Shown here in pieces: positions 2,410 to 18,397 of a DNA stretch of 64,000 bases (positions are counted from its first letter, which is position 1; each line of letters opens with the position of its first letter). Location of the stretch: contig CAWCKY010000001.1 of assembly GCA_963796275.1 (NCBI GenBank), positions 608,001-672,000 of the forward strand. The letters are read 5' to 3'. The position numbers were made by a program, and so were the translations under genes. Under the pieces are notes generated by a model. The model saw only the letters and a list, made by a program, of their open reading frames with translations. It was not told where the DNA came from and searched no databases. Origin of the DNA: an uncultured Acidobacteriota bacterium (GTDB taxonomy: Bacteria; Acidobacteriota; Blastocatellia; RBC074).

Positions 2410-3990
2410 TCACATCTGGACATTTTCAAAATCGCTCTTCCTAACATGGAGGGCTTCGGATGCCGATACCCCTTCCGTCCTCGGCTGAGGGAATGTTTGC
2501 CTCATCAAATCCGCCGGCGAGTCTGTACGTGTACAGACAATCAGAATTTGAAAGGCGAACAGCCCGGGCCACCGCCGCGCAAGCATTGTCAGCGCGCGAT
2601 CAACCAGCCTTATCAAACGCGATCGTTCACCCGCCAGATCGGCAAGGGGAGGGCCGAAACCAATCTCACTGTCGATCCGGAAACCTGCATTCTTAAGCAA
2701 TCTCCGAAAAGAATTGACCGTGAACAGCCGCCGGTGGGCTATGTCGAGAATCCCACGCCCGTAATTAAACCATCCCAGCAGTAGCACAAGGCGGAGAGGG
2801 AAGAAGGCCACGTTGCCCGTGCTCGCATAAAGCTTCCCTCCGCTTTTCAAGTGCTTGAAGATTTCCTCCGCGCATTTCTCCGGCGATCTCAAGTGTTCGA
2901 GTACGTCGAGAGCGATCGCCGTGTCATATTGTCCGGCTTCGAATTGTCGCACCCAGGGGCGATCGAGATCGACGGCGAACTGCCTCATTTCGGGTTCATC
3001 CTGATCAAGCCATTGGTCTATGTGAGTTACTTCGACGCCGCGTTCGGCCATGCCACGGCTGACAGCATCACCGTTCGCGCTGCCCAGATCGATCAGGCTC
3101 GAGCCGGGTACAAGAGGCAGGTTTTTTATAAAATATCTGAGTGTAGTCGGAGCATGGGTGCTCCTGGTTCGAGCGATTGACTCGCTTTCGATATCGAATT
3201 TTGGGTCGTAGAATATATCGAATTGCATGAGCCGGTATTTGGATACCGTTTTGACGCATTGCCAGGCATACCGCAACCCGTTCACGTGGCAGATCTCATC
3301 GCCGTAGTAGGTCGGGATCGGTACTTCGGTAATGCGAAAACCGGCGGCGTGTAGCTGTACGATTATATCGGCATCGAAATCAAACCCCAGGCTATTGCTG
3401 GTGAAAGGAACCTGCCTGAGAACCGAGGTGCGATATGAGCGATAGCCGCTGTGCATTTCGGTCATCCGGGCGCCCAAAATCAAATTTTGTGTCCTCGTTA
3501 AAATGCGGTTGCCGATCCATTTGTAAAGCGGCATTCCGCCTTTGATTGCATCTTTGGGGTTGATGAAGCGGCTGCCAAAAACCGCATCCGCCCCTTCGGC
3601 ATAGGGCGCCAGGATGTGGGGTAGAGCTTCGGGCGCATACTGGCCATCGCCGTGCAGGAGTACGACGATATCGATCCCCTGTTCGATGGCATAGAGGTAG
3701 CCCAATCGTTGATTACCGCCGTAACCTTGATTATAGGGAGTGCGAAAGATATTCAGGGGAGCGTATCGACTCGGCCAGTCGACTTGGCCGGCGACTGCGA
3801 CGGTATTATCGCTCGAATGGTCATCGATGATGAATATCTCGGCGAGTCGCTCGGCAATCCAATCGGGGATCCGTTTCAGCACCTTCTCGATATGCCGCTC
3901 AGCATTATAGGCCACGATTAAGATGGCGACCCGATTCTCCTCCAGGGTGCGCCGCGCGAGCTCTTCGATATGATTCGAGTGGCTATTCAA
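2410..3990 (-). CDS. GT2 (polyprenol-phosphate glycosyltransferase-like) fused to a class I SAM methyltransferase
   Basis: N-terminal IVAYNAE, IIDDHSSD, HGDGQY and HSGYRSY (DPM1-like). C-terminal LIDLGSANG and DVLEHL methyltransferase motifs. Confidence 0.85.
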   Translation of the reverse strand: MNSHSNHIEELARRTLEENRVAILIVAYNAERHIEKVLKRIPDWIAERLAEIFIIDDHSSDNTVAVAGQVDWPSRYAPLNIFRTPYNQGYGGNQRLGYLYAIEQGIDIVVLLHGDGQYAPEALPHILAPYAEGADAVFGSRFINPKDAIKGGMPLYKWIGNRILTRTQNLILGARMTEMHSGYRSYRTSVLRQVPFTSNSLGFDFDADIIVQLHAAGFRITEVPIPTYYGDEICHVNGLRYAWQCVKTVSKYRLMQFDIFYDPKFDIESESIARTRSTHAPTTLRYFIKNLPLVPGSSLIDLGSANGDAVSRGMAERGVEVTHIDQWLDQDEPEMRQFAVDLDRPWVRQFEAGQYDTAIALDVLEHLRSPEKCAEEIFKHLKSGGKLYASTGNVAFFPLRLVLLLGWFNYGRGILDIAHRRLFTVNSFRRLLKNAGFRIDSEIGFGPPLADLAGERSRLIRLVDRALTMLARRWPGLFAFQILIVCTRTDSPADLMRQTFPQPRTEGVSASEALHVRKSDFENVQM

Positions 3991-4113
3991 GGTTGTTTGG
4001 TTCGGTTTATGTCTCTGATTTCGGGGTCGAGGGCTTTATTCACTTGAGAAACTCAGATTTTACCCTGCGAACAATCGTTTTGCATAGACTTTAATGGGTA
4101 TTGGAAAAACTGC

Positions 4114-6420
4114 TCAGTTTTTCTCGGATGGTTGCCATCCCAGGAAAAAGATTTGTATTGCGTCAGATTTCGCATCATCGTTGGGTAAAGAGAGCTTCAT
4201 ATCTATTTGCGCGTTGCGGTGCAAGGATTGTGGGACCTCGATCGTTTTTATGAAACTTCTATTCGACGGGTGAAATTGTTCAATGACCGTTCCGGCAACC
4301 TCGATTTTTATATCCCGTTTGGATTCGTCAGGCTGCTCAGGAACATACATCTTGATAAATATCCGCCCATCGCCCGCGATCGCCGGCAGATGGGTGATCG
4401 ATGATCCGCTTGTCCATCGCCAGTATTTGGCTCCGTCATTATCCAATTTGTGCCAGCCTGAGCCGAGGTATTGATCGGGTGACGTATCGATAATCCGGGC
4501 CCCAGGCGCCGGCGTCCATTCGATCCCGAAACATTTAAGACCGTATTCATGCCTACTTTTCGTATTGACTCGCTGATCGATTTCGAGGGAGAGAATAGAC
4601 CAGGTGAGCGACGGATCGGGCTTTATCGTAATTTGGTGGTCCATCTCGGACCCGGTGAAGTTGAAGCGGTCGATCTCGGCGCCATTCAGTTTAAATACGA
4701 GGGTAGGTCTACGACCAGGATCTGGCATATCTACGATGGATCCTCGTACACGCAATGTCATGGAATCTGCCAGGCTGTATAACGCGACTTTGCTCTGGAG
4801 CCGCATCCAACGCCGTATCCCCTCTCGATCGATCTCGATCGGGTACCAGCCCGAGAGAAACGCGATCCCCTGCGGTTTAGATCTGTCGGTTATATGCACG
4901 CCGGAGAAGCGCTCCAGGCTCGGTTTGGACAAACGTTTTGCCCCGACTTCGCTGGACGTCCAAATGAAATGCTCACCCTCCATACCCAGGAGCGGATCGC
5001 CCGTCAGCGTGAGGACGTGCGGTAGATCCGCCGTCGACCAGATCATATTGCTCCAGGGATCCAGAATCTCATCGAGCAAGGCCGTTCTGTGGTCCGGTAG
5101 ATATAAGGAGACAAACGGCGAATAGATATTCCCGTATAAGAGCAGATCGTTTTTCGGATCCAGAGTTTTTTTCAAATGATTGAATGCGCGCACCGGCGGG
5201 CTCACTTCTCGGTGCAACAGGCCGATTATCGGATAGGTCCAGGCGGCGATTACTACTGTCAAGCATACCGCGAGAAATAGCCCCGAATTCCTTAGCGCCG
5301 CATGGCGCCCTGAGCGGAAAAGCCAGCGAGGCGCCCAGATCAGACCACATGCTGCCAGGCCGGTGAAGAAGGGGACATACGGCAGGGAGTAGAGCGGACC
5401 GCCGAGCCGCGTGTTCAACATAAAGGTGAAGATCAAATAGGGCAGGAAGATGATCACCATGAGGCCGATATTCTTCCATTTCCGATTGAGGGCGAGTGCG
5501 ATAAATCCGGTGACGGCGAACACGTATACAGAATACATAATCCACCTCGCTCCCCATATATGCTCGAAAAAACGCCGGAAGCGGTAAAAGAAGGTCTTGA
5601 GAGTCGGAGCCTCGATAAATATTGTGTCCGTCTCGAGGATGTATCGAGATTGGTGATCCACGGCGCGGCGAAATACCGGCAAGGTGAAGTGGTAAACCAG
5701 CGGCACATACCAGACGAGTACGCAAAAGGTTCCAACCGCGAGCGCTGCCATGACGCTGCCCCACTGGCGCCGCCATAACCGGATGAGAAAGACCAGGGCG
5801 ATGGCCGGCACCATAACCGGAAGCACCGACGTTCTAACTCCCAGGGCCAGGCCGAAGACCGCGCACCCGGCAATCAGCAAACGCGGAGATTGAATACCGC
5901 GAAGGACGAGCGCCAACCCGATAATTCCGAGTGAAAAGGCGACGCCGTCGCTGCGCCCCGCGCCGCTGTGCACCCATACATTCGGCGCGAAACTTCCCAG
6001 TAATGCCCCGGCGAGAGCTATTCTCCGATCTTCCAGAACTACGCGATAAAGGTAGTAGAGCGCGGGGGCGACGAGAGAGGCGAAGATAAAGGCAACAGTC
6101 GTCAGCGCGCGATGTTCATCCCCTACCAGCCAGAAAACTACGCGCGTCATCATCACGAGGATAGGAAACCCCGGGGGGTGGGGGCTATGAATAGTGATGT
6201 CGAATTTATGTAAGGCGCGCGCAAACAGAATATCGTCGTATTCCCAAAGTGAGGCGGGAATTGCTATGAATCGCGTGGCAAAGCAGAGGAGGAACAATCC
6301 AAACGCGACCAATTTGTCATTTTTTAAGTCCAGCGTAGATAATCGCGAAAGGAGAGCTGAAACCGAACTCTTCTTAGATATGTTGGTGGGCGCGACAGGC
6401 GAGCCATCACTGAACTTCAA
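4114..6420 (-). CDS. GT-C-fold (ArnT/PMT-like) membrane glycosyltransferase with two C-terminal extracytoplasmic domains
   Basis: WEYDD...HSPHPPG motif after TM1, many TM helices, and two GW..E/D..RW repeats at the C-terminus. Confidence 0.65.
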   Translation of the reverse strand: MKFSDGSPVAPTNISKKSSVSALLSRLSTLDLKNDKLVAFGLFLLCFATRFIAIPASLWEYDDILFARALHKFDITIHSPHPPGFPILVMMTRVVFWLVGDEHRALTTVAFIFASLVAPALYYLYRVVLEDRRIALAGALLGSFAPNVWVHSGAGRSDGVAFSLGIIGLALVLRGIQSPRLLIAGCAVFGLALGVRTSVLPVMVPAIALVFLIRLWRRQWGSVMAALAVGTFCVLVWYVPLVYHFTLPVFRRAVDHQSRYILETDTIFIEAPTLKTFFYRFRRFFEHIWGARWIMYSVYVFAVTGFIALALNRKWKNIGLMVIIFLPYLIFTFMLNTRLGGPLYSLPYVPFFTGLAACGLIWAPRWLFRSGRHAALRNSGLFLAVCLTVVIAAWTYPIIGLLHREVSPPVRAFNHLKKTLDPKNDLLLYGNIYSPFVSLYLPDHRTALLDEILDPWSNMIWSTADLPHVLTLTGDPLLGMEGEHFIWTSSEVGAKRLSKPSLERFSGVHITDRSKPQGIAFLSGWYPIEIDREGIRRWMRLQSKVALYSLADSMTLRVRGSIVDMPDPGRRPTLVFKLNGAEIDRFNFTGSEMDHQITIKPDPSLTWSILSLEIDQRVNTKSRHEYGLKCFGIEWTPAPGARIIDTSPDQYLGSGWHKLDNDGAKYWRWTSGSSITHLPAIAGDGRIFIKMYVPEQPDESKRDIKIEVAGTVIEQFHPSNRSFIKTIEVPQSLHRNAQIDMKLSLPNDDAKSDAIQIFFLGWQPSEKN

Positions 6421-6545
6421 TCGACGTCTTCCTCCCAGATTCCTCGTGAATTAGCATAACAGCCAGGAGAAATTCTACGCCGTTCACCTATCTCAGGCAA
6501 AATTTCCCCGATTAGTGTAGGGTAATTTTAGAGTTGTTCAGCTGC

Positions 6546-7595
6546 TCAGCTTCGCACGCGCCGCTGCGATTCCTCCGGAATGATATCCAGCAACAATCTC
6601 TCATTTCTCCTGATAATAGTAAGTTGCGATTTCACACCGACTTTCTGATCGGTCAGCAGGCGATGCAGATCGTCTATCCCCGCGATCGGCTGATCGTCAT
6701 AACCAATGATCAGATCGCCTTCCTGCAAACCGGATTTCAATGCGGGGCTCTCCTCTTCCAGCGAGACGACCAGTACAGCCGTTTGGAATTGCAAGTTGAA
6801 ATAACGTACCAGGCGCCGATGTAGCGGAACGACCTGACCCGCGACGCCGATATAACTGCGGCGAACTCGTCCTTCTTTGATCAGCTGCCCGGCGACAAAT
6901 TTCGCAGTATTGATCGCGATGGCAAAGCAGATGCCTTGAGCTGGCAGAATGACGGCCGTGTTGACGCCTATCACCTCACCGCGCGAATTGACCAGCGGCC
7001 CGCCCGAGTTCCCCGGGTTCAACGCAGCATCGGTCTGAATAATGTTATCGATCAACCGGCCGGAGGGCGTGCGCAGGCTGCGACTCAACGCGCTGACCAC
7101 ACCGGCAGTCACCGAGTACTGAAATCCATAAGGGTTGCCGATGGCGATAGCCAGCTGGCCGACCCGGATCTTCTGCGAATCACCGAGCGCGACCGGCATC
7201 AAATTGCCCAGATTGATGCGCACCACAGAAAGATCGGTATCCGGATCGTCGCCGATTAATTGCGCGTCGCTACGGCGCCCATCGGCCAGCGTCACACTGA
7301 TTTTCGATGCTCCGTGCGCGACATGGCTATTGGTCAGAATGAAGCCATCGGGAGTGAAAATGAATCCAGAACCACTGCCACCCGCATTGCCGCGCGGGCT
7401 GCTCGGATTGCGCCCCTGACCCTCGTGATTGACTTCGATGTTGACGACCGATGGATTGGCTCTTTCCGCAGCTCCGATTACGGCTTGCGAATATGCGTCG
7501 AGTATCTCGTCATCCGTCTGGGTGACGGATTCCGATATGCGATTCGGATGGATGTTTATGCCGTCGTCTGAAACAAAATGTGAATGATCATTCAT
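6546..7595 (-). CDS. HtrA/DegP-family serine protease with one PDZ domain
   Basis: GSGSGF, TNSHV, D(L)SVV and IQTDAALNPGNSGGPL catalytic motifs, plus a C-terminal PDZ domain. No evident signal peptide. Confidence 0.92.
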   Translation of the reverse strand: MNDHSHFVSDDGINIHPNRISESVTQTDDEILDAYSQAVIGAAERANPSVVNIEVNHEGQGRNPSSPRGNAGGSGSGFIFTPDGFILTNSHVAHGASKISVTLADGRRSDAQLIGDDPDTDLSVVRINLGNLMPVALGDSQKIRVGQLAIAIGNPYGFQYSVTAGVVSALSRSLRTPSGRLIDNIIQTDAALNPGNSGGPLVNSRGEVIGVNTAVILPAQGICFAIAINTAKFVAGQLIKEGRVRRSYIGVAGQVVPLHRRLVRYFNLQFQTAVLVVSLEEESPALKSGLQEGDLIIGYDDQPIAGIDDLHRLLTDQKVGVKSQLTIIRRNERLLLDIIPEESQRRVRS

Positions 7596-7683
7596 ATTTT
7601 TGATATAGCACCTGGAGGCGCTAATGTGAAGTAGGTACCGCGCAGTGTTATACTCACCACGCGGTAACTGGTGGAGGTTTGAT

Positions 7684-8064
7684 GTGAATGTCGCTGTGAA
7701 TAAAGACAGTAAAACTCCGGCGGAGATTACCCTTATCGTGATCGGGGGCCGGTGGAAAATCCCAATCCTCTATCACTTATTCCAGGGCGTGAAGCGCTTC
7801 TCCGAGTTGCAACATTCATTGGATGGGATCTCGCAAAAAGTCCTGACGCAGCAATTGCGCGAGATGGAGCGTCACGGTGTCGTCCATCGTAAGGTCTATC
7901 CTGAGGTGCCGCCCAAGGTCGAGTACTCACTGACCCCGCTCGGCGAGACGTTGAAGCCCGTTATCGAAGAGTTATGCAAATGGGGGACAAAGTTCGAAAT
8001 CGGCGAATTCGAAGCCGAAAAGATTGAATCGTACACAATGAACGTATCTCCGAAAGAAGATTAG
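7684..8064 (+). CDS. HxlR-family winged-helix transcriptional regulator
   Basis: IGGRWK, RFSEL, ISQKVLTQQLREME and PPKVEYSLT motifs. GTG at 7684 follows a GGAGGT RBS. Confidence 0.92.
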   Translation: MNVAVNKDSKTPAEITLIVIGGRWKIPILYHLFQGVKRFSELQHSLDGISQKVLTQQLREMERHGVVHRKVYPEVPPKVEYSLTPLGETLKPVIEELCKWGTKFEIGEFEAEKIESYTMNVSPKED

Positions 8065-8130
8065 CGCTGACACTTTGACTGCGATCGTTTAACTATGGGG
8101 GATTGCAGATCGGTCCCAATCCGCGATCAC

Positions 8131-9210
8131 TTACCATCGCTTGAAATTAAATCTGTCGAGTGTGATGCCGAGCCCGGTGGTAATCAGCAGGTCGTTATTC
8201 CTCGAGCCGAAGACCTGATTGCTGATGTAGCGATCGCTGACGATGATATCCCAGGTAAGCCACTTCGACATCTTTGTGATAACTGCCGAATCGAATGTGA
8301 TCCGATATTCTCCCGTATTACTCATATTCGGAAAGAGTTGAAAGCGCTGCTGTATTGAAACGCGATCTGAGAGTTTGAAAGTAAGCTCCTCTCCAACCAG
8401 CAACTCGCCGGAATTGCGAGTCACCCCGGTCGAGTATTTCTCCCGGTCGTACGCGCCGCCGCCGAAGACCTGAAATTGTGTCCGATCATTCTTGATGAAG
8501 TAATATCCGATGCCTCCGCCCGGTACGGCTCGTAAGTCCAGAAGCTGAATCTCATTGTAGTCGAAATCGGCGAAGCCGAAGGCCACCCATCTATCGGTGA
8601 GATTGTGTTCGTAGCGGCCACCCCCGTGGATTGTGTTGGCTGTCGTCTCGGTCACGCCGCCGCTGTTGTTCTTCGATTTGACGTAAGCCGCATAGAGGGT
8701 TGTCTTGTCCCGGTTCGTCTGGCGGCTCATAATTGTGTCAAATGATAATGTGGTGTCTCGGATAGTCCCCGTTGTCAGGCTGTAGCCAAGATTCATATCG
8801 GTATCCCATAAATCCAACCAGCTCGGGTGGAGATGCCGTTCGTATTCCTCCTGCTCGGGTTTTGATCGGATCGCCTGGACTTTGCCGGGCTCGAGCGAAA
8901 CCAATGCGGCGTCCCTGGTTTCAACCTCGTAGTTACCTCCTCTGGTCGCGACCCTTCCAGCTACCGTCTTTCCATCATCGAGCGCAAACCAGAGCGTTTG
9001 TTCAGATGTGATCTGCGTTACTACATCGGCCGATATATTGATCTCGCCGGCATAATCGGTCTTGATTGTCAGCGTTTTTCCATCTGATTTGACGATCATG
9101 CCCGAGATTCGATCGCCATTTTTCAACGTTACCTCGTCGGCTAGAATTCGCGCCCCCAATCCCGGCCAGAGCATACATATCGCCGCTAAAATTACTATTT
9201 TACAAGGCAT
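8131..9210 (-). CDS. DUF481/YdiY-like outer-membrane beta-barrel protein
   Basis: Signal peptide, DEVTLKNGDRISG N-terminal domain and alternating beta-strand pattern. ATG 9210 follows GGAGG. Confidence 0.75.
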   Translation of the reverse strand: MPCKIVILAAICMLWPGLGARILADEVTLKNGDRISGMIVKSDGKTLTIKTDYAGEINISADVVTQITSEQTLWFALDDGKTVAGRVATRGGNYEVETRDAALVSLEPGKVQAIRSKPEQEEYERHLHPSWLDLWDTDMNLGYSLTTGTIRDTTLSFDTIMSRQTNRDKTTLYAAYVKSKNNSGGVTETTANTIHGGGRYEHNLTDRWVAFGFADFDYNEIQLLDLRAVPGGGIGYYFIKNDRTQFQVFGGGAYDREKYSTGVTRNSGELLVGEELTFKLSDRVSIQQRFQLFPNMSNTGEYRITFDSAVITKMSKWLTWDIIVSDRYISNQVFGSRNNDLLITTGLGITLDRFNFKRW

Positions 9211-9371
9211 TGCCCCTCCCTTCATTAACAGAAAAACCGAGAATTATGGAAGGAAATTTTCAGTTCGGCCGGAGGATAGTGCGAGATATAGATATTAACC
9301 GTCAGATTCATATCTGTCTATCGGTCGGCATAAGCAGATTTTTCGGATTGCAAGCCCACTTTATCTAAAAA

Positions 9372-9413
9372 GACAAAAATGTTATCTTTCACGCTCCTGG
9401 AGACATTTTTGTC
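9372..9413. promoter_or_regulatory. Pair of ACA-W4-TGT palindromic boxes, 30 bp apart, upstream of the NifA-like activator
   Basis: GACAAAAATGTT (9372-9383) and GACATTTTTGTC (9402-9413). Confidence 0.6.
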
Positions 9414-9516
9414 CAAGACGTTAAGCGGCGAAAGATATCGATAGCAGTGATGTTCGGGTGCCAGTATTGGCAGACATAACCGATGCTGAATAAAAGCACG
9501 AGGAGACAAAGCGGGC

Positions 9517-9530
9517 GAACAATATTGTTC
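9517..9530. promoter_or_regulatory. Third ACA-W4-TGT box (perfect 14-bp palindrome), possible autoregulatory operator
   Basis: GAACAATATTGTTC, about 45 bp before the activator start codon. Confidence 0.55.
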
Positions 9531-9574
9531 TTTACTTTCTCTTCTTCTTTTTCCTGGTTCTAGCGGCAGAGGAG

Positions 9575-11107
9575 ATGATGATGGATGAATCGGCACAGAT
9601 AAGGAAGTTGACGGCGCTGCTCGACGTGAGCCAGGCGCTCGGTTCCACCTTAAATTTAAGCGAGGCTCTTGAAAACATTCTGGAAATTCTCGACCGAGAA
9701 CTCGGGATGAAGCGCGGCGCTATCGTAATGCTGGAAGCGAAAGGGGAGCTGAAGATCCAGTATGCTCATGGGATGAGCGAGGGTGAACGGCAACGCGGTC
9801 GCTATCGTCTCGACGAAGGCATAACGGGCAAGGTCGTATCATCAGGCAAACCTGTGGTTGTTCCACAGGTGAGCAGGGAGCCGCTGTTCCTCAACCGGAC
9901 GCGCAAACGCGATCCCAAACAGGAAGAATCCTTCATCTGTGTTCCGATCAAAAACCACCGCAAGACGATCGGCGCGCTTTCGATCATTTATCCGTTCAAA
10001 CAAAACAGGAGCTTCGATGATGCGGTTAAACTCCTCACGATCATAGCTTCGATGATTTCGCAGAGCCTCCGAATGGCGCAGATGGTTGAGCAGGAGAAAG
10101 CACAGCTGGTTGATGAGAATGCGCTGCTTAAGCGCGAACTGCAACAGAAATATGATTTCCGCAACATCATCGGTACGAGCAAAGAGATGCGCGAGATCTA
10201 TGATCAGATCGCGCAGGTCGCGCATACCAATACTACCGTGTTGATTCGGGGAGAGTCGGGCACGGGCAAAGAGCTGGTCGCGCACGCGATCCACTACAAC
10301 AGCCCGCGTTCAGCCAAACCTTTCGTTAAGGTTAATTGCGCGGCGCTCCCCGAATCATTGATAGAGTCGGAGCTCTTCGGTCACGAGAAAGGAGCTTTCA
10401 CCGGCGCCGTTGCGCGCAAAAGAGGGCGTTTCGAGCTGGCTGAAAGCGGAACGATGTTTCTGGACGAAATCGGTGATCTTTCGCCGGCATTACAAGTCAA
10501 ATTGCTGCGCGTTCTGCAGGAGCGCGAATTCGAGCGGGTCGGAGGTACCGAGACGATCCGCGTCAATGTCAGGATGATAACGGCGACGAATGTAGACCTG
10601 GAACAGGGGGTGCAGGATGGGCGTTTCCGCTCCGACCTGTATTACCGACTGAATGTCTTTTCGATATATTTACCGACATTGCGCGAGAGAAAGACCGACA
10701 TCTTATTGCTCGCCGATCATTTCCTCGAAAAATACGCTCGTCAAAACGGTAAACGTATCAAGCGTATTTCGACGCCCGCCATCGATATGCTGATGAGCTA
10801 TCACTGGCCAGGCAATGTGCGTGAACTCGAGAATGTCATAGAACGGGCGGCGCTCGTCTGCGAAGGAAACGTCATTCACGGGTATCATCTGCCCCCCACC
10901 CTCCAGACCGCTGAAGGCTCTGGAACAGTTACAAAGATGAGCCTGGATCAGGCGGTCAGCGCATTTGAAAAGGACCTGATTCAGGATGCTTTGAAAACAG
11001 CGCGCGGCAACCGTGCGCGCGCTGCCAGAATGCTCGATACGACCGAACGCATTCTCGGTTATAAGGTCAAGAAATACGAGATTGATTCCAGACGCTTCAA
11101 AGGATGA
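9575..11107 (+). CDS. NifA-like sigma54-dependent activator (GAF-AAA+-Fis HTH)
   Basis: N-terminal GAF domain, GESGTGKE Walker [33 protein letters not shown], and C-terminal [13 protein letters not shown]. Confidence 0.92.
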
Positions 11108-11222
11108 AGTCAGCTCATTCTGCGTACCAACTCTGAACATTCACTATGAGCTCGCATAAATGCTGAAGTATTAATCGGGACCGCCTTTGTTTCATAAATA
11201 AATTCCCGGCACTGATGAAAAG

Positions 11223-11266
11223 CGACAATAATGTTGGGAAAATCGAGCGAGGCTACATTTTTGATG
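11223..11266. promoter_or_regulatory. Putative upstream activator sequence: two ACA-W4-TG boxes 30 bp apart
   Basis: cGACAATAATGTTg (11224-11235) and cTACATTTTTGATg (11254-11265), about 95-135 bp upstream of the -24 element. Confidence 0.6.
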
Positions 11267-11357
11267 TGGGCTAAAAAATCGTTATCGCGCCTGGGCTTGT
11301 CTATTTTCCGCTGTTTTTGCTGACATTTAATGGACCAAACCGGGGAAACGCTCGGAC

Positions 11358-11373
11358 TGGCAAGCCAGTTGCT
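11358..11373 (+). promoter_or_regulatory. Sigma54 (-24/-12) promoter for the small ORF-glnA unit
   Basis: TGGCAA-GCCAG-TTGCT matches TGGCAC-N5-TTGCW with exact GG-N10-GC spacing. Confidence 0.85.
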
Positions 11374-11444
11374 ATAAAACATGTTTACGTATCGTTCAGG
11401 AAGAAGATTTTAGAGGGAGGGGGCACTACTATAAGTGTGAATAC

Positions 11445-11669
11445 ATGAGTGGAAATTACAGACAAAAAAACAACAGTTATGGACAGCTCATGGAATTTTT
11501 GTTGAGCGAACGCCATCGTTATGAATCCGAAGAGGAATTCAGAGCATACGCTCTTGGGGAGGTTCGACGTTTCATCAGCGAGTTGCGACGGCTTGATATA
11601 GAGCTGACGATGCGGCCGAATTTTCTTGAGAAATCACCATTGGATTTCAACGCACCTGATAAGCCATAA
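11445..11669 (+). CDS. Small uncharacterised protein (74 aa), paralog 1, upstream of glnA
   Basis: Ungapped 46-aa core shares 30 identities with ORF 18673-18933. Lies between the sigma54 promoter and glnA. Confidence 0.8.
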   Translation: MSGNYRQKNNSYGQLMEFLLSERHRYESEEEFRAYALGEVRRFISELRRLDIELTMRPNFLEKSPLDFNAPDKP

Positions 11670-11788
11670 AAGCTTACGGTGACGAAGAAGCCCTGCTGGA
11701 TTTCTTCAGGCTTTTCCGAAGAGTTTCTTTCCAATCCCAATAATTTAATTTTGGCCTGGGAGAGTCCCAGCGCCCAAGGAGGCAATGA

Positions 11789-13213
11789 ATGACCCCAAAA
11801 GATGTAATAAAGCTAGCCAAAGAGAAGGGCATACAAATTGTAGACCTACGATTTATTGATATGCCCGGGACATGGCAGCACTTCTCGATTTCGGTTGGAG
11901 AATTGTCTGAAAACCTCTTCTCGGAGGGGATTGGTTTTGACGGTTCATCAATTCGAGGATTCCAGGCGATCAATGAATCGGATATGCTGCTCTTTCCGGA
12001 TCCGACAACCGCCACCATCGATCCCTTCACCGAGCATCCGACGTTGGTACTGATCTGCGATGTGAAAGACCCGATTACCGGCGCGAATTACACGCGCGAT
12101 CCGCGATTTGTAGCCAAGAAAGCCGAGGAGTATGTCAAGAAGACAGGTCTGGCCGATACGGTATACATTGGGCCAGAGCTGGAATTCTTCATCCTCGATA
12201 ATGTCCGCTTCGACCAGAGTTACAACTACGGTTTTTATTATCTCGACTCAGAAGCAGCGGCCTGGAATTCGGGAAGAGAAGGAACGCCCGAGAGGCCGAA
12301 CCTGGGCAATCGTCCGCGCTATAAGCAGGGTTATTTCCCCGTGCCGCCCGATGACCATATGCAGGACATACGCTCTGCGATGCTGCTGGCGCTCGAAAGC
12401 GTCGGCGTGAGAATCGAAGTACACCACCACGAGGTGGCGACCGGCGGTCAGACCGAAATCGACATGCGGTTCGACACATTAACCCGGATGGCTGACAAGG
12501 TGCTCTGGTACAAGTACTGCACCAAGAACGTTGCGAAGAGATACGGTAAGACGGTGACATTCATGCCCAAACCGCTCTTCCAGGATAACGGTTCCGGCAT
12601 GCATACGCACCAGTCGCTGTGGAAGGGTGAGAAGAATATCTTTTACGAGAAGGGGGGGTATGCCGATCTCTCGCAAACCTGTCTTTACTACATCGGCGGC
12701 ATTCTCAAGCACGCGCCGGCTCTGTGCGCATTGATCGCGCCGACCACCAACTCCTATCGCCGTCTGGTGCCCGGCTACGAAGCACCGATCAACCTGGCCT
12801 ACAGCCAACGAAACCGATCGGCGGCTGTGCGCATTCCGACCTACTCGAAAGCCGAGAGAGCCAAACGCATCGAGTTTCGTACTCCGGACCCGACCTGCAA
12901 TCCGTATCTCTCCTTCGCCGCTTGCGTAATGGCGGGGCTGGATGGGATTGCCAACAAAATCGATCCGGGCGATCCGATGGACAAGGACCTCTATGAATTG
13001 CCGCCGGAAGAGGCCGCGGAGATCAAGCAGCTTCCGGGATCGCTCGATGAGGTGCTCAATGCATTGGAGACTGATCATGCCTTCCTGCTGAAGGGCGATG
13101 TCTTCACTAAAGATTTGATCGAGACCTGGATCGAGTACAAACGGAAGAACGAAGTGGATCCGATCCGTCTGCGTCCACATCCCTGGGAATTCGCGCTCTA
13201 TTTCAACGTCTGA
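11789..13213 (+). CDS. glnA: Glutamine synthetase type I
   Basis: [33 protein letters not shown] and RIEFR motifs. Adenylylation Tyr in [17 protein letters not shown]. Confidence 0.98.
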
Positions 13214-13217
13214 AGCT

Positions 13218-13294
13218 GCACAAACTGGAAGCAAGAACGGCAAAATGAAGTAGAAAAGTTTGCTTCCTTTTGCCCTTTTGCTTCCAGTTTTTGC
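13218..13294. terminator. Long imperfect inverted repeat between convergent glnA and GlnE-removase genes, probable bidirectional terminator
   Basis: AAACTGGAAGCAA (13222-13234) pairs with TTGCTTCCAGTTT (13278-13290). Confidence 0.6.
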
Positions 13295-13296
13295 GC

Positions 13297-14895
13297 TTAT
13301 TTCGTCTCTTTCGTTTCCTCCTCGCTTCTCCTCTTCAGGCGCGAAGATTCTGGCGCCCCGATGATAATTTCGAATATTCCATTCACATGGTTGGTATGAA
13401 GTTGATAGTCGCGTAGGAATTGCTCGCTTGCGCTCAATTGATCGTCATCGCAATAACCGAGCATACGGGAGAGAGCATTCAAGGGGCCCGCTTTTACCGG
13501 TATCGAATGCGTCTGCGCATCATCGACCATCTGCAGCTTATTCTCCACATCCCGCAGGAAAATGTAGGCCGCAGTCAGCCTGATCATCTCGTCAGCCGAG
13601 ATCAGCGCTTGAGCGCAGAGCGCATCGAGGGCTTTCAGCGTGCTGCGTCCGCAAATCTCCTGGTAGCTGCTCCCGAATGTTAGTTGAAGCGCCTGTACGA
13701 TGAGTTCGATCTCGCGGATTCCCCCGAATCCCAATTTGACGTTTCGGTCCCGCTCGCGGCTGGCAGTCATCTTTCTGTCGATCTTTTTCTTCATAGCGCG
13801 GACCTCGTTGAGGGGTTCGAGGCCGAAAGGGCGTTCATAAACAAAAGGAGCGACCATGGCCAGAAATTGCCGGCCGAGCCGGGCGTCGCCAGCCACCGGA
13901 TATGCCTTGAGCAAAGCTAATCTCTCCCACGTCTCACCCCGCGCATAATAATATCGCCGGAATCCATCGAGCGAATATGCGATGTTTCCCATTCGGCCAT
14001 CGGGCCGTAACCTCAAATCGACGCGATACAAATAGCCTTCGTTTGTGATGTCGCTTAAAGCCAGGGTGACTCTTTGCGAGAGCTGGCGATAGTACTCGGT
14101 GCTCGAGATGGGTGCGGTCTGATTCGAGTCATCATCGTCAGCTGCGTGTAGATAGATCAGGTCGACATCGGAGCTGAAGTTGAGCTCACCTCCGCCGAGT
14201 TTCCCCATTCCCAGGATGGTGAACCCCCCCAAACTTCTTCTGGAGATTCCGGATTCTCGAAACAGCGCGCCTTCACAAATCCGCAGGGCGGCCGAGATCA
14301 GCGCTTCAGCGAGTAGCGAGAGAGCAGACAGCGTTTCTTCAACCGGGCAAAGACGCATGAGATCGCGCACTCCGATGTGCAGCATTTCCCTACGTTTGAA
14401 AGCGCGCAGGAAATCCAATTGCTTCTTTTCTGACGCGATACTCTGCAGTCCGCGCAAGACATCGCGGGCGATCTCCCGCTTTTTACGTTTCTGGTAGAGC
14501 GTCTGAGGATCAGTCAGCCAGTAGAGATAGACCGGATCCCTGATGAGAATTTCGGCCATATGCTGGCTGCCTCCGAAAGTCTTGGCGAGAATTTCCAGGC
14601 TGCGCGGGGATTCATTAAGGTAGGAAAACAAGCGCGTTTTGTTGACGGCGGAGCGCGCGAATCTTTCGAAATGATTGAGCGCCTGGTCCGGGTCGGCCGA
14701 TTGCGACGCGCACAGGAGCAAATCTTCCAGGATATTGGCCAGTAGCTGGCGCGCCGTGGGATCATCCGCCATCGCCTGCAGATTGGCGTCAGCTTTAGTT
14801 GGCTCTTTAAATCCGTAAGGACCCAGCAAAGCTTCCGCCTGCTGCGGATCGAGGCGTGGCGCCAGCAGTAGATCCTTTAAGTTCTTGGGCGACAT
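13297..14895 (-). CDS. glnE: Stand-alone GlnE N-terminal half (adenylyl-removase-type nucleotidyltransferase)
   Basis: One NT domain: GMGKLGGGELNFSSDVDLI, YRVDLRLRPDG, WERLALLKA and NVKLGFGGIREIE. Start taken at MSPKN (ATG 14895). Confidence 0.85.
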   Translation of the reverse strand: MSPKNLKDLLLAPRLDPQQAEALLGPYGFKEPTKADANLQAMADDPTARQLLANILEDLLLCASQSADPDQALNHFERFARSAVNKTRLFSYLNESPRSLEILAKTFGGSQHMAEILIRDPVYLYWLTDPQTLYQKRKKREIARDVLRGLQSIASEKKQLDFLRAFKRREMLHIGVRDLMRLCPVEETLSALSLLAEALISAALRICEGALFRESGISRRSLGGFTILGMGKLGGGELNFSSDVDLIYLHAADDDDSNQTAPISSTEYYRQLSQRVTLALSDITNEGYLYRVDLRLRPDGRMGNIAYSLDGFRRYYYARGETWERLALLKAYPVAGDARLGRQFLAMVAPFVYERPFGLEPLNEVRAMKKKIDRKMTASRERDRNVKLGFGGIREIELIVQALQLTFGSSYQEICGRSTLKALDALCAQALISADEMIRLTAAYIFLRDVENKLQMVDDAQTHSIPVKAGPLNALSRMLGYCDDDQLSASEQFLRDYQLHTNHVNGIFEIIIGAPESSRLKRRSEEETKETK

Positions 14896-15062
14896 ACTGT
14901 CTGATAAGATAATGAAGTTTGGAAGACGAAACAAATAATAATTATATGGAGGAATGAATCACGACAAAAATCACAAATGTTGCCTGTAACCGCAAATATT
15001 ATCTTTGGCATCGGTTTTTTGTCCTGTTGTGAGACTTCTTCCTCGAATACTATAGAACACGA

Positions 15063-17312
15063 ATGGTGAACGCTGAAATCAAGAGAGTGATCGAAACATT
15101 CTGTCCGGAAATCGACAAAGATTTTGTCGGGGAATTCTTTGCTCGCATGGATGAAGATTATTTTGCCACTTTCTCTCCGGAAGAGATCGCCACCCATATA
15201 CGTATGTCGCGCGGGCTCGATCCGGAGCATCCGGTGCGATGCCTGATTACGCCGCGCGGTGACGGCGAATTCGATATCATCATCGTCGGTTTCGACTACC
15301 TTTCCGAGTTTTCCATCTTCTGCGGCTTAATGTCGGCGTTCGGTCTCGCGATTCAATCCGGCAATAGCTATTCGTTTGCCAGGAATACGTCCGATGCCAC
15401 AAGCGCGCGAACGGCCCACCGATCTCCTAGAAGGAAGCGGCCATCGTCGAGCCGGATCGTAGATGTCTTCACCGTCAGCCTGGACCAGGATGAGGTATTC
15501 GATGAATCCACACAATCCCGCTTCGCGGAGCAACTGCAAGCGCTCGTCCGGCAGCTCGCTACAGGATCGTCCGACCAGGTTAGGGATCGTCTCAATCGCC
15601 TTCTGACCGATCGTCTTGAGAAGATGGATGGGCAATTGAGCGGTCTGCTCTCTCCCATCGATGTCCAATTCGATAACCTGGCTTCGCCGGACTGGACCCT
15701 GATGAACGTGCGCTCCGAGGATGCCTACGCCTTCCTCTATGCTTTCTCGAATGCGCTCGCGATGCGCGGAATTTACATACACAAAGTCAGGATCGAAAGC
15801 GTCCGGAACGAAGTGAGAGATCAGTTTTTCATCGCCGACAGATGGGGACGCAAAATCGAAAGTGAACGAGAGCAGGAGCAACTGCGCACGGCGGTAGTGC
15901 TGATCGAGCAATTCACACGGTTCTTGCCGTCAGCGCCGGACCCGGCTCGGGCGATGCGCCACTTCGATCAGTTTCTGGATAAGATCGCGGAGGAGCAGAT
16001 TTCCGACGAGTCCGTAGCCTTTTTCACCGGCGATGAGGGAATGAACCTGCTGGCGCATCTGCTGGGCAGCAGCGATTTCCTCTGGGACGAGTTCCTGCGC
16101 TTCAAAGAAATACAACCGATCCTGCCGATTCTGAGAGACTTCTCTCGCATTGAACTGGATCCCGGTAAACAATCGCTGTTCTATCACCTCGACGCACAGC
16201 TTGCCCGTGCCGCCACTTTTGAGGAGAAGAAGAAGGGCGTCAACCAATTCAAGGACCGCCAGGTCTTCCTGATCGATATAAAGCACCTACTGGATCCGCA
16301 GACAACCCTGGTGGATTTCTCTCAAGCGCTGACCCACCTGGCCGAGGTGATTCTGCATAAAGCTGCTGAACTTTGCCTCTCGCAACTGGTCGAAGAGTAC
16401 GGAGAGCCCGTGTTGATAAACGGAACCAAGTGCAGGTTTACGATCTGCGGGCTGGGCAAGTTCGGCGGGTGCGAAATGGGATATGCATCCGATCTTGAGA
16501 CGTTGTTTGTTTACGAAGGACCGGGGCAGACGCGCGGAGATAAGGCGATAGATAATGGGATTTTCTTTGAGCTATTGGTGCAAAAGATCGCAGAGTTCAT
16601 CGAAGCCCGTGAGAAAGGGGTCTTTCACATCGATCTCAGGCTCAGACCGCACGGAAAAGCCGGCGCGCTGGCGAGCCCGTACGAACAGTTGGCGGCTTAT
16701 TACAGTTCAACAGGCGAAGCTGCCCCTTTTGAGAGGCAGTCGCTCATCAAGCTGCGGTGGGTCGCCGGAGATGAAGCTCTCGGACGTAGAGTGGAAGCCC
16801 ATCGGGACAGTTACAGCTATAGTGGGGAGACATGGGATTGGGAGTACGCCCTCCATCTGCGCGGCAGGCAAGAGCGTGAACTGGTCAGGGCCGGTGAGGT
16901 GAATGTGAAATATAGTCCCGGTGGAATCATCGATATAGAGTACACCGCTCAGTATCTGCAAATCATCTTTGGGAAAGATCAGGGCCTCAGGACGGCCAAC
17001 ACGATGGAGGCGTTGGACGAGCTCAACCGTTTGCAAATCATCGCTCGAAGCGATCACGGTGAATTACAGACCGCCTATATTTTCTTGCGCCGGCTAATCG
17101 ATGCGCTCAGGCTGGTGCGCGGCGATGCCAGCGACCTCGTGCTGCCGCACGAGTCTTCAGAGGAATATAAATCGCTCGCTCGAAGAATGGGCTACCAGGA
17201 GCGAGACCGAAGAAAGAGCGCCGAGCGATTGGCCGCGGATATCAGACAGTTAATGAAAAAAGTCCGGTCACATTATCTGAAATGCATACAAATTAAGGCG
17301 CAGCCGGGTTAG
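15063..17312 (+). CDS. glnE: GlnE C-terminal half (adenylyltransferase-type) fused to N-terminal GlnD-like tandem ACT domains
   Basis: GLGKFGGCEMGYASDLE, IDLRLRPHG, FERQSLIK and VKYSPGGIIDIEY. The N-terminus has EDYFATFSPEEIATH and VQFDNLASPDWTLMNVRSED...DQFFIADRWGRKI, resembling GlnD ACT repeats. Confidence 0.85.
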   Translation: MVNAEIKRVIETFCPEIDKDFVGEFFARMDEDYFATFSPEEIATHIRMSRGLDPEHPVRCLITPRGDGEFDIIIVGFDYLSEFSIFCGLMSAFGLAIQSGNSYSFARNTSDATSARTAHRSPRRKRPSSSRIVDVFTVSLDQDEVFDESTQSRFAEQLQALVRQLATGSSDQVRDRLNRLLTDRLEKMDGQLSGLLSPIDVQFDNLASPDWTLMNVRSEDAYAFLYAFSNALAMRGIYIHKVRIESVRNEVRDQFFIADRWGRKIESEREQEQLRTAVVLIEQFTRFLPSAPDPARAMRHFDQFLDKIAEEQISDESVAFFTGDEGMNLLAHLLGSSDFLWDEFLRFKEIQPILPILRDFSRIELDPGKQSLFYHLDAQLARAATFEEKKKGVNQFKDRQVFLIDIKHLLDPQTTLVDFSQALTHLAEVILHKAAELCLSQLVEEYGEPVLINGTKCRFTICGLGKFGGCEMGYASDLETLFVYEGPGQTRGDKAIDNGIFFELLVQKIAEFIEAREKGVFHIDLRLRPHGKAGALASPYEQLAAYYSSTGEAAPFERQSLIKLRWVAGDEALGRRVEAHRDSYSYSGETWDWEYALHLRGRQERELVRAGEVNVKYSPGGIIDIEYTAQYLQIIFGKDQGLRTANTMEALDELNRLQIIARSDHGELQTAYIFLRRLIDALRLVRGDASDLVLPHESSEEYKSLARRMGYQERDRRKSAERLAADIRQLMKKVRSHYLKCIQIKAQPG

Positions 17313-17359
17313 ATGTTCGGTCGCCGGAAATCAATCGAGAACAAATTTTTGTGCCCTTC

Positions 17360-18397
17360 CTACCATTCGCCAGCATCGACCACATCGACCTCCACGGCGT
17401 TCGAACTGTGACCCTCGCAATAGACCTGCACTGTGTTGGAGCCGATATCGAGCCCGGGTGGGACAGCGATATTGATCTGTGCCGAGCCGGCCTGATCGAT
17501 CTCACTGACAAAACAGGGGCGCACACCATAACCTCCGATCACAACCTTCACGTTTGTGCGAGTCGCCGTTTCTGGCATTCTCTTCGCCCAGATCGCGAAA
17601 ATCGCATTTCTGCCGCGGCGCGGGAAGTAATGCTTGAAAGTACATGCATTATTCACATCATCGATAAAGATCGAGGGCGCGGGTTGAGCCGGTAGGTCGG
17701 TGAATTGGCGGTGAGCCTTTAAGGTCGATCGCGTCTTTTCGCGGTGTATCACATCTATCTGCGCGAACCCGGCGGTATCGGCCATATTTACGAGGCACTG
17801 CGTATTTGGCCCCCACCAATTATCGTATTGCCCGCCCAATTCATCGAACGGATAGAACTCCATGACCGGCGACGTTGCATCGAGCATACCATCGATAACG
17901 TATGATTGAATTATCGCTACATCGCGCGTAACTTCACAGACGCGCTGCAGACCCAGCAATGGATGTTGCAGATGGTAGAGCACGCCCAGGAAAATGACGA
18001 TATCGAAAACGCCGAGATTCTCGCGGCTGACTTCATAGACGCTCAGCTCGCGAAATTCAACGCGCGATTTGAGCTCGCTATGCGCCTCGAAGAATTTGGC
18101 GGGGCGGACGCAGTCGACTGCCACCACCTCGGCACCGTGCCGTTCAGCCGTGAACGAATAAAAACCATCCCAACAGCCAATGTCGAGCACACGCTTCCCG
18201 GTAAGGTCATCCGGTAATTTGAAATTGTCATAATGAGATTGAAGTTCATCGAGTTTGCGCGCGCCCGGAGTGATTCGGCCGCCTCCGAGATCGATGCTGT
18301 GCCACCAACCGGTTTTCGCCAGTTCTTCGGTATTTTCTCCCGCTACTTTTTCATGTGCTTCCCGCATCGCGAGATCGTCTTTTAATTGTGTCGCCAT
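17360..18397 (-). CDS. Class I SAM methyltransferase (CmoB/DUF1698-like) with C-terminal IPT/TIGR03437-like tail
   Basis: WWHSIDL, VLDIGCWDG, FLGVLYHL and NWWGPN motifs. Tail is QINIAVPPGL...SSNAVEVDV. Confidence 0.75.
   Translation of the reverse strand: MATQLKDDLAMREAHEKVAGENTEELAKTGWWHSIDLGGGRITPGARKLDELQSHYDNFKLPDDLTGKRVLDIGCWDGFYSFTAERHGAEVVAVDCVRPAKFFEAHSELKSRVEFRELSVYEVSRENLGVFDIVIFLGVLYHLQHPLLGLQRVCEVTRDVAIIQSYVIDGMLDATSPVMEFYPFDELGGQYDNWWGPNTQCLVNMADTAGFAQIDVIHREKTRSTLKAHRQFTDLPAQPAPSIFIDDVNNACTFKHYFPRRGRNAIFAIWAKRMPETATRTNVKVVIGGYGVRPCFVSEIDQAGSAQINIAVPPGLDIGSNTVQVYCEGHSSNAVEVDVVDAGEW

Follow-up and report, generated by a model that had tools for sequence, protein, structure and literature searches.

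The 64,000-nucleotide stretch analysed here (the window; positions 608,001 to 672,000 of the forward strand of contig CAWCKY010000001.1, assembly GCA_963796275.1) comes from an uncultured Acidobacteriota bacterium and carries, next to the glutamine synthetase (GS) gene glnA, two open reading frames (ORFs) that each resemble one half of the bifunctional enzyme GlnE. ORF1 is a stand-alone GlnE unit of the adenylyl-removase (AR) class, and ORF2 is a unit of the adenylyltransferase (AT) class preceded by a sensor module of the type found in GlnD, the PII uridylyltransferase/uridylyl-removing enzyme (Table 1). The two genes lie head to head on opposite strands, separated by a gap of 167 bp, and glnA adjoins ORF1 tail to tail. 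The longest frame of ORF1 (13297–14934, minus strand) encodes 545 aa, and its start was set at Met14 (position 14895), since both the 532-aa database form P0121 and the alignment of 83 relatives begin there.

Table 1. Features of the locus, with positions in the window and the evidence for each call
Feature	Position	Strand	Basis or remark
GAF / sigma-54-activator / helix-turn-helix (HTH) gene	9575..11107	+	NifA model above cut-off
glnA, type I glutamine synthetase, presumed substrate	11789..13213	+	Pfam, TIGR00653, E. coli GlnA alignment
ORF1, stand-alone GlnE unit, AR class, 532 aa from Met14	13297..14895	-	Pfam, profiles, motifs
ORF1 helical GlnD_UR_UTase domain (residues 379-524)	13363..13800	-	Pfam
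ORF1 nucleotidyltransferase domain (Pfam GlnE, residues 115-359 of the 545-aa ORF)	13858..14592	-	contains GMGKLGGGELNFSSDVDL; third acidic residue in YRVDLRLRP
Divergent intergenic region between ORF1 and ORF2, 167 bp, A+T-rich	14896..15062	.	sequence
ORF2, ACT-ACT-adenylyltransferase (AT-class GlnE unit), 749 aa	15063..17312	+	Pfam, NCBIfam, AlphaFold2, Foldseek
ORF2 residues 1-290, GlnD-type sensor module	15063..15932	+	TIGR01693, E. coli GlnD alignment, Pfam, AlphaFold2, Foldseek
ORF2 disordered Arg/Ser/Pro-rich insert inside ACT1 (residues 109-127)	15387..15443	+	predicted local distance difference test (pLDDT) <50 in both models
ORF2 nucleotidyltransferase domain (Pfam GlnE, residues 330-578)	16050..16796	+	contains GLGKFGGCEMGYASDLE (Asp477-x-Glu479), FHIDLRLRP (Asp524)
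ORF2 helical GlnD_UR_UTase domain (residues 610-738)	16890..17276	+	Pfam; GGIIDIEY just upstream

Two single GlnE units of opposite class

Each ORF contains one GlnE nucleotidyltransferase stretch (PF03710; 218.9 bits, E 9.9e-65 in ORF1 and 146.5 bits, E 1.2e-42 in ORF2), followed by one helical GlnD_UR_UTase stretch (PF08335; 104.6 bits, E 5.7e-30 and 77 bits, E 2e-21, respectively). All four scores exceed the Pfam cut-offs (24 bits for GlnE and 21 bits for GlnD_UR_UTase), with E-values far beyond chance, placing both proteins in the GlnE family. Neither protein reached the thresholds of the three models for the bifunctional GlnE equivalog (NF008292/NF010707/NF010706, with cut-offs of 487/625/724 bits), against which ORF1 scored 373.8/330.9/327.9 bits and ORF2 192.8/167.6/167.1 bits.

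We then assigned each unit to a class from its motifs and profile scores. In E. coli GlnE, Asn169 of the AR half and Gly697 of the AT half are described, in the available part of the source, as the only class-specific residue pair, and AR activity needs Asn169 (PMC4454073). The corresponding residue is Asn in all 120 ORF1-type proteins, which share the motif N..SD.D, and Gly in 119 of 120 ORF2-type proteins, with the motif G..SD.E in the same number. A second motif splits the halves of GlnE cleanly, with GGIREIE in first halves and GGI(I/V/T)D(I/V)E in second halves, and both ORFs conform to it; GGIREIE occurs in 116 of the 120 ORF1-type proteins, and IID, IVD or LID in 111 of the 120 ORF2-type proteins. 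Separate profiles were built from the N- and C-halves of 118 two-unit GlnE proteins (121 sequences, comprising 120 plus that of E. coli, from which three were dropped that gave three hits each). The C-half profile scored higher for 119 of 120 ORF2-type proteins (mean +46 bits), and the N-half profile for 120 of 120 ORF1-type proteins (mean +93 bits); since the two-unit proteins had been picked by their likeness to ORF1, this could inflate the ORF1 result, but not that of ORF2. ORF1 is also nearer to the solved AR domain of E. coli GlnE (1v4a, 199.7 bits) than to the AT domain (3k7d, 177.1 bits). ORF1-type proteins thus combine Asn, GGIREIE and a preference for the N-half profile, and ORF2-type proteins combine Gly, GGI(I/V/T)D(I/V)E and a preference for the C-half profile. 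In fused relatives (described below), the ORF2-like unit always sits on the ACT module and the ORF1-like motif lies in the other unit. On motifs, profile scores and position in these fused relatives, ORF1 is classed as AR and ORF2 as AT. An earlier reading of the letters alone (the sequence-only reading) had noted one nucleotidyltransferase domain per ORF, a removase-half signature in the minus-strand gene (ELNFSSDVD and NVKLGFGGIREIE) and a transferase-half signature in the plus-strand gene (EMGYASDLE and GGIIDIEY); Pfam gives the single domain in each case, the signatures were recovered from the respective translations, and the two class assignments are supported.

The catalytic motif is likewise complete in both ORFs. 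No variation was seen across 83 ORF1-type and 117 ORF2-type sequences in the glycine-rich loop G-x-GK-x-GG, in the SD-x-(D/E) pair or in the third Asp of (V/I)D-x-RLRP, and the fixed positions include D245, D293 and N239 of ORF1 (P0121 numbering) and D477, E479 and D524 of ORF2. Judged by these conserved carboxylates, neither half appears inactive. The Asp477-Leu-Glu479 of ORF2 is encoded at 16491–16499, and D-x-E is found in 120 of 120 ORF2-type proteins. Glu is an accepted variant in the polymerase-beta-type nucleotidyltransferase motif, and we therefore read D-x-E as a mark of lineage and not of inactivation; in the aligned sequences, it is a clean marker of the ACT-linked transferase clade.

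The neighbouring GlnA matched Gln-synt_C (E 2.2e-137) and Gln-synt_N of Pfam, scored 674 bits against TIGR00653 (cut-off 429) and is 54% identical to E. coli GlnA. Its Tyr402 aligns with Tyr398 of the E. coli precursor (in the segment MDKNLYDLPPEE), which we take to be the adenylylated tyrosine, Tyr397 in the mature enzyme. The segment around Tyr402 is identical to that of the Mycobacterium tuberculosis enzyme. Retention of the target tyrosine, asserted in the sequence-only reading, is thus confirmed by alignment.

A GlnD-type ACT module in front of the transferase

The N-terminal module of ORF2 consists of a helical lead-in (residues 2–50), ACT1 (about 58–166), a linker helix (170–187) and ACT2 (about 200–290). 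Residues 17–277 align to positions 615–844 of the 850-position GlnD model TIGR01693 (E 1.2e-19), and BLASTP aligned residues 17–272 to residues 655–875 of E. coli GlnD (E 4e-6), covering the pre-ACT linker and both ACT domains. In addition, the Pfam model ACT_ACR9_3rd matched residues 201–277 (28.4 bits, cut-off 27). An AlphaFold2 model of residues 1–300, computed from 76 aligned sequences (mean pLDDT 86.9, predicted TM-score (pTM) 0.85), shows the helical lead-in followed by two beta-alpha-beta-beta-alpha units, with the loop of residues 109–127 interrupting ACT1. This insert lies between two strands, is very variable in length across the family and is absent in several Terriglobia-type sequences. 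A Foldseek comparison of the module with the PDB gave five matches at E ≤0.001 (7e-6 to 3e-5 for 7jsr and the entries beginning with 9hv), all to the large glutamate dehydrogenase of Mycobacterium smegmatis, whose N-terminal region contains ACT-like domains. The next matches were aspartate kinase, the tandem-ACT protein 2nyi, the isoleucine-bound regulatory domain of threonine dehydratase, and SerB2. Sequence profile and predicted fold thus agree on ACT domains. The stretch of about 280 residues that had been likened, without any search, to the GlnD linker and tandem ACT domains therefore corresponds to a 290-residue module on which TIGR01693, the GlnD alignment, AlphaFold2 and Foldseek concur, with an ACT fold predicted and ACT proteins as its structural neighbours.

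Within the module, D78, D134 and F255 are invariant and F136, D220 and D253 are at least 90% conserved, and these six Asp/Phe positions align with identical residues of both E. coli GlnD ACT domains. According to the available part of one study, GlnD requires its ACT domains for the glutamine response, and an N-terminal GlnD-like ACT domain confers glutamine activation on the Chlamydomonas enzyme AMA2 (PMC11190351). From this sequence relationship, glutamine is probably the ligand of the ORF2 module. A model of the whole of ORF2 (117 sequences; mean pLDDT 88.0, pTM 0.85) suggests that the sensor and catalytic parts are held in a fixed arrangement.

The pairing recurs in related genomes

A scan of one genome per species returned at least 599 candidate stretches; relatives are encoded in at least 571 of them, and the analysis centred on the best 80 loci. 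These comprise 64 loci from Nitrospirota, 15 from Acidobacteriota and one from Chloroflexota, and include the cultured Nitrospira moscoviensis NSP M-1. In 69 of the 80 loci, the ACT-AT gene has an AR gene beside it, which lies upstream and divergent in 65, lies downstream on the opposite strand in three (L006, L021 and L045) and is fused in frame in one (L054). In the divergent pairs, the median gap between the hits is about 176 nt, and in L005 the two hits share 6 nt. A frameshift or assembly artefact as the origin of ORF1 and ORF2 is ruled out by the opposite strands, as the sequence-only reading had argued from the head-to-head orientation, together with this recurrent pairing. No adjacent AR gene was seen in 11 of the 80 loci, seven of which have less than 800 nt of upstream DNA. 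The AR homologue was hit in two pieces in L019 (6413–7992, overlapping) and in L045 (10208–11654, abutting), which points to a frameshift, a pseudogene or an assembly error in those loci.

In the DNA fetched for the 80 loci, we found glnA in 19, PII in 15, GlnD in three and a NifA-like activator in three; these counts are lower bounds because many of the loci are short. Three Solibacteraceae-like Acidobacteriota loci (L005, L016 and L025) share the order glnD on the plus strand, PII and the AR gene on the minus strand, and ACT-AT on the plus strand, with PII directly downstream of the AR gene; only 16 nt separate the two in L025, where the cluster spans 3573–10130. Pfam confirmed the P-II domain and an adjoining complete GlnD with nucleotidyltransferase, HD and ACT domains, and the arrangement suggests that PII is co-transcribed with the removase in these bacteria. 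In the Nitrospira loci, the PII T-loop retains a Y-R-G-x-E-Y segment, which we take to be the uridylylation site. In those lineages at least, the pair, with PII and GlnD beside it in L005, L016 and L025, thus coexists with the PII relay and does not replace it. A different setting was seen in L026 (Candidatus Manganitrophaceae; 11497–15696), where three PII-like ORFs, one of them inside a 387-aa ORF, lie downstream of ACT-AT and the AR gene is about 2 kb away and does not abut.

Fused forms and the history of the two genes

The fused locus L054, from an Anaerolineaceae genome, encodes one ORF of 1221 aa in which a GlnE and UR_UTase unit, an ACT region and a second GlnE and UR_UTase unit follow one another. 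With ORF2 residues 1–300 as query, 1.84 billion representative proteins yielded 977 matches at E ≤0.001 (412 at ≤1e-10 and 94 at ≤1e-30), and the best 150 of them were sorted according to their size and to how the module and the two motifs follow one another. Among these 150, proteins of 600–860 aa comprised 24 ACT-AT and six AR-ACT forms, and those of 861–1100 aa seven ACT-AT, two AR-ACT and one AR-ACT-AT. The proteins longer than 1100 aa comprised 16 AR-ACT-AT, 15 ACT-AT-AR, six ACT-AT in which the motif of the other unit was not matched, and one AR-ACT. The remainder, shorter than 600 aa, are likely fragments (68 with ACT only and four ACT-AT). Pfam found two GlnE and two UR_UTase domains in each of four long fused proteins; an ACT match was given in both AR-ACT-AT examples and in neither of the two ACT-AT-AR examples. 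The G..SD.E motif is present in every ACT-linked AT unit inspected. The precomputed Pfam column assigns an ACT label to none of the 120 closest longer relatives of ORF1. Atlas cluster summaries, which serve as leads only, place the clusters of 1169–1266 aa mostly in Planctomycetota, Chloroflexota, Thermodesulfobacteriota and Nitrospirota. That AR and ACT-AT units have been fused in either order is evidence of the classical kind for a joint function. The sequence-only reading had treated the arrangement as a single locus; it now appears as one of three layouts, two of them fused, within a large family.

A first tree of 57 units left the deep nodes unresolved and placed ORF2 in neither half. We then analysed 123 units in an unrooted tree (quick IQ-TREE search, LG+G4, with support from the Shimodaira–Hasegawa-like approximate likelihood ratio test (SH-aLRT) only). 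All 51 ACT-linked AT units (21 from split pairs, 15 from AR-ACT-AT and 15 from ACT-AT-AR proteins) form one clade with SH-aLRT 100. The stand-alone AR proteins group with the N-halves of ordinary two-unit GlnE (support 99), and the AR units of the fused ACT forms are a separate group (support 92). An approximately unbiased (AU) test rejected a tree uniting the stand-alone and fused AR units (log-likelihood lower by 63.3, p 0.0036), for a grouping that was named after the tree had been seen and that involves long branches. Four two-unit proteins whose second unit is unlabelled in the tree have an intact second-unit motif by alignment. Because the stand-alone AR proteins stand apart from the fused AR units, the two-gene layout is probably not the simple fission of an AR-ACT-AT gene. 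From the tree, an ACT-AT gene may instead have teamed up with an AR protein derived from ordinary GlnE. Of the claim that GlnE had been split here, the two-gene layout therefore stands, but the history of fission that the word implies is not clearly supported, given the grouping of the stand-alone AR with the N-halves of ordinary GlnE.

Genomic setting of the locus

The GAF/sigma-54-activator/HTH gene just 5' of glnA scored 562.7 bits against the NifA model (cut-off 528.85), and no nif genes were seen in the window despite this match. Its pairing with glnA recurs in L002 and L004 at 86–89% identity and in L023 at 49%. Between the activator gene and glnA (intergenic region 11108–11788), a sigma-54-like site with one mismatch, TGGCAAGCCAGTTGC, lies at 11358–11372; such sites are not enriched in the window, with 47 matches at up to two mismatches against 50.5 expected. 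A scan of 11000–17500 for sigma-70 promoters and terminators gave nothing above shuffled sequences, and the only sigma-70-like match in the region between ORF1 and ORF2 (minus strand, 15025–14998) is not above chance for that region.

Pfam analysis of 40 further ORFs showed the remaining neighbours to be housekeeping genes and found no PII or GlnD gene in the window, which covers 64 kb of a contig of about 1.3 Mb. The methyltransferase gene at 17360–18397 (minus strand) encodes a TIGR04290-like protein (109.5 bits, under the cut-off), with a C-terminal match to the 'Solibacter uncharacterized C-terminal domain' TIGR03437 (29.6 bits, cut-off 29.05), one of the signs of an acidobacterial origin of the window. 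The phosphofructokinase ORF at 51578–52405 (plus strand) covers only positions 80–277 of the 277-position Pfam model; either its start lies further upstream than the first ATG/GTG/TTG used, or the gene is truncated.

A probable two-protein adenylylation cycle and its alternatives

We consider it probable, with some reserve, that ORF1 and ORF2 form a two-protein cycle of GS adenylylation, in which ORF2 would act as an ACT-gated AT and ORF1 as the AR, the two functioning as a pair. The observations behind this model are the domain content, the class signatures, the intact catalytic residues, the predicted ACT fold, the conserved pairing and the fused forms; what we infer is that GS is the substrate and glutamine the ligand, which way the regulation runs, and any input from PII or contact between the two proteins. 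ORF2 would move AMP from ATP onto Tyr402 of GlnA and so turn GS down, and its N-terminal module would bind an amino-acid signal, most probably glutamine, switching the transferase on when nitrogen is plentiful. When nitrogen is scarce, ORF1 would strip the AMP by phosphorolysis. In E. coli GlnE, the removase is under the control of PII-UMP and 2-oxoglutarate, and ORF1 would, by analogy with ordinary GlnE, probably be controlled by PII or PII-UMP together with 2-oxoglutarate; the three loci in which a PII gene follows the AR gene immediately and in the same orientation agree with this. That the two proteins would act as a functional pair is in keeping with the fusion of AR and ACT-AT units in either order in other phyla.

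According to the available part of a recent preprint, ordinary GlnE senses glutamine in its C-terminal part, AMPylation in Herbaspirillum does not need unmodified GlnB, and control by GlnB-UMP needs the N-terminal domain of GlnE (10.64898/2026.09.02.748916). On that partial account, direct control of the AT by glutamine would be normal and cross-talk between the halves would matter; in a two-protein version, such cross-talk between AR and AT would need a complex. More tentatively, we put forward the possibility, itself doubtful, that the family represents a GS-adenylylation system of its own, ancient and widely distributed (Nitrospirota, Acidobacteriota and Chloroflexota, with Planctomycetota and Thermodesulfobacteriota as Atlas leads), in which the GlnD-type ACT pair on the transferase reads glutamine, the switch-off of GS bypasses the GlnD-to-PII relay, PII acts only on the separate removase, and the two enzymes form a complex of regulated assembly.

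Several observations weigh against the two-protein cycle. The AT assignment of ORF2 is not evident from overall similarity: its scores against the solved AR and AT domains of E. coli GlnE are nearly equal (111.4 and 106.1 bits), Foldseek of the full model does not discriminate between the folds (1v4a, E 5e-19; 3k7d, E 1.1e-17), and two of the three NCBIfam GlnE models align ORF2 to the AT half and one to the AR half. Given such near-equal domain scores, it is the motifs, the gap between the profile scores and the place of the unit in fused relatives that carry the assignment. The class residue itself is not uniform, since in the C-half of 120 longer two-unit GlnE proteins it is Gly in 65, Asn in 18 and another residue in 20, the second-unit motif being matched in 103 of the 120 and only the first-half motif in the other 17. 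Asn at the second-unit class position was seen in P0286, P0294, P0303, P0319, P0245 and P0359, among many non-proteobacterial metagenome lineages, and the Asn169/Gly697 rule is therefore not general. The second-unit motif of two-unit GlnE is D-x-D wherever it was matched (103 of 120), in contrast to the D-x-E of ORF2-type proteins, and the stem of the ACT-linked AT clade is long, at 0.78 substitutions per site; this private motif and the long stem may reflect a changed substrate or chemistry in the clade. As for the sensor, Pfam calls ACT2 only, and ACT1 rests on the GlnD alignment and the model. As for the substrate, glnA is adjacent in only a minority of related loci, and the cyanobacterial GS 3ng0, from a lineage that is not known to adenylylate GS, has the tyrosine too, so that retention of this residue is weak evidence. 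Four loci (L012, L024, L031 and L057) have no adjacent AR gene despite 1.2–3.5 kb of upstream DNA, and our literature search found no biochemical study of any member of the family.

The alternatives differ mainly in what the ACT module does. In the sequence-only reading, it was proposed to make adenylylation directly glutamine-activated and independent of PII, with the removase merely expressed separately. The GlnD-like character of the ACT pair and a 64-kb window without a PII or GlnD gene are in keeping with this, as is the PII-independent, glutamine-stimulated AMPylation of ordinary GlnE described in the available part of the preprint, by which PII is dispensable for the AT in at least one system (10.64898/2026.09.02.748916). 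However, PII genes occur in 15 of the 80 related loci, PII follows the AR gene on the same strand next to a full GlnD (with its nucleotidyltransferase, HD and two ACT domains) in L005, L016 and L025, the Nitrospira PII keeps the Y-R-G-x-E-Y of its T-loop, and absence from 64 kb says little when the contig measures about 1.3 Mb. The PII-independent part of that proposal is thus unsupported, and we judge the explanation as a whole unlikely. Slightly less so, though still doubtful, is the idea that the module is no glutamine sensor, and instead binds another amino acid or metabolite or serves as a platform for dimerisation or for docking to the AR protein or GS. ACT ligands are diverse, and the structural neighbours answer to other amino acids (serine for SerB2, isoleucine for threonine dehydratase, and aspartate kinase likewise) or have ligands that are not known; the best Foldseek matches are to the N-terminal region of the large glutamate dehydrogenase, no known glutamine sensor; the module directly abuts the AR unit in fused forms; and ordinary GlnE, in the same partial account, has its glutamine-responsive site in a C-terminal part without an ACT domain (10.64898/2026.09.02.748916). 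What speaks for glutamine is that the module is specifically GlnD-like rather than a generic ACT pair (E 1.2e-19 over the linker and both ACT domains), that it shares its conserved Asp/Phe positions with both GlnD ACT domains, and that glutamine responses are tied to GlnD-type ACT domains in the available part of PMC11190351.

Two further explanations concern the catalytic parts. ORF2 could have been retargeted to PII or another protein, as a GlnD-like writer without the HD eraser, leaving ORF1 as the sole GS-directed enzyme or as the eraser of another mark. Its ACT-ACT-nucleotidyltransferase-helical order is that of a permuted, HD-less GlnD, and the private D-x-E motif, the long stem branch and the presence of glnA in only 19 of 80 loci would suit such a role, which we nevertheless regard as quite improbable: the nucleotidyltransferase domain is of the GlnE type (Pfam GlnE 146.5 bits, NCBIfam GlnE models 167–193 bits), whereas the GlnD models with their best stretch in the catalytic part of ORF2 (560–728 and 610–726) gave only 40.2 and 31.4 bits and TIGR01693 (70.1 bits) matches best over the ACT module. 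Moreover, ORF2-type proteins are paired or fused with an AR-class unit across phyla, and a complete GlnD coexists beside the pair in three loci. That one of the two ORFs is a catalytically dead regulatory paralogue is hardly credible; the second Asp of ORF2 is replaced by Glu and ORF2 is far more diverged from the E. coli domains than ORF1, but neither the three acidic positions nor the glycine-rich loop varies among the 117 ORF2-type and 83 ORF1-type sequences. The two-protein adenylylation cycle thus remains the reading that we prefer.

GS adenylylation is a textbook covalent-modification cascade that is understood almost only from proteobacteria and actinobacteria, and the reciprocity of the opposing activities of GlnE and the site of glutamine action are unsettled. 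Since the AR and AT activities would here lie on separate proteins, with the sensor on one of them, the questions of how signal maps onto activity and whether glutamine acts directly become testable. Database names for ORF1- and ORF2-type proteins are "glutamate-ammonia-ligase adenylyltransferase" or "hypothetical protein", and we found no description of a split or ACT-bearing GlnE in the full-text literature, a search outside whose coverage lie most subscription journals and bioRxiv supplements. A two-gene GlnE with an ACT sensor is thus widespread and apparently never studied; the arrangement is real and uncharacterised, yet its parts are familiar and their combination would seem plausible to a specialist. 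In its available part, a Nitrospira genomics paper scores glnE as present or absent only (PMC9239080), and surveys of this kind merge three different architectures. Among the carriers are nitrite oxidisers of the genus Nitrospira and Acidobacteriota that are abundant in soil, and the mechanism therefore bears on nitrogen assimilation in wastewater treatment and soils.

Comparison with known systems

The closest characterised counterpart is the bifunctional GlnE of E. coli (1V4A, 3K7D), with which the locus shares the order of a GlnE nucleotidyltransferase and a helical GlnD_UR_UTase domain in each unit, the catalytic motif, the AR and AT class signatures, and a GS with the target tyrosine. However, E. 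coli GlnE is one protein of 946 aa, whereas two genes on opposite strands are found here; it has no ACT domain, whereas a 290-aa GlnD-type ACT module precedes the AT unit here; and its AT metal motif is D-x-D, in place of the D-x-E of ORF2.

The second relative is GlnD, whose C-terminal linker and ACT1/ACT2 are homologous to ORF2 residues 17–277 and which likewise has a related nucleotidyltransferase with a helical domain. In contrast to GlnD, ORF2 gave no HD domain hit, carries its ACT pair at the N-terminus instead of the C-terminus, and has a nucleotidyltransferase domain of the GlnE type. Its 70.1 bits against TIGR01693 fall far below the cut-off of 519, and the GlnD proteins of L025, L016 and E. 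coli gave HD and ACT hits in the same scan.

The fused ACT-GlnE proteins (AR-ACT-AT and ACT-AT-AR, 1160–1290 aa), seen in the Anaerolineaceae locus L054 and among metagenome proteins, have the same ACT module, an AT unit with G..SD.E and the same domain inventory; unlike the pair described here, they are single polypeptides, and their AR units fall in a separate clade. Finally, the glutamine-activated Chlamydomonas alpha-amylase AMA2, like ORF2, has a GlnD-like ACT domain N-terminal to a catalytic domain as an amino-acid switch, according to the available part of PMC11190351, and plant ACR proteins are comparable in that the Pfam match of ORF2 is an ACR9-like ACT model; the catalytic domain is unrelated, and these are eukaryotic proteins.

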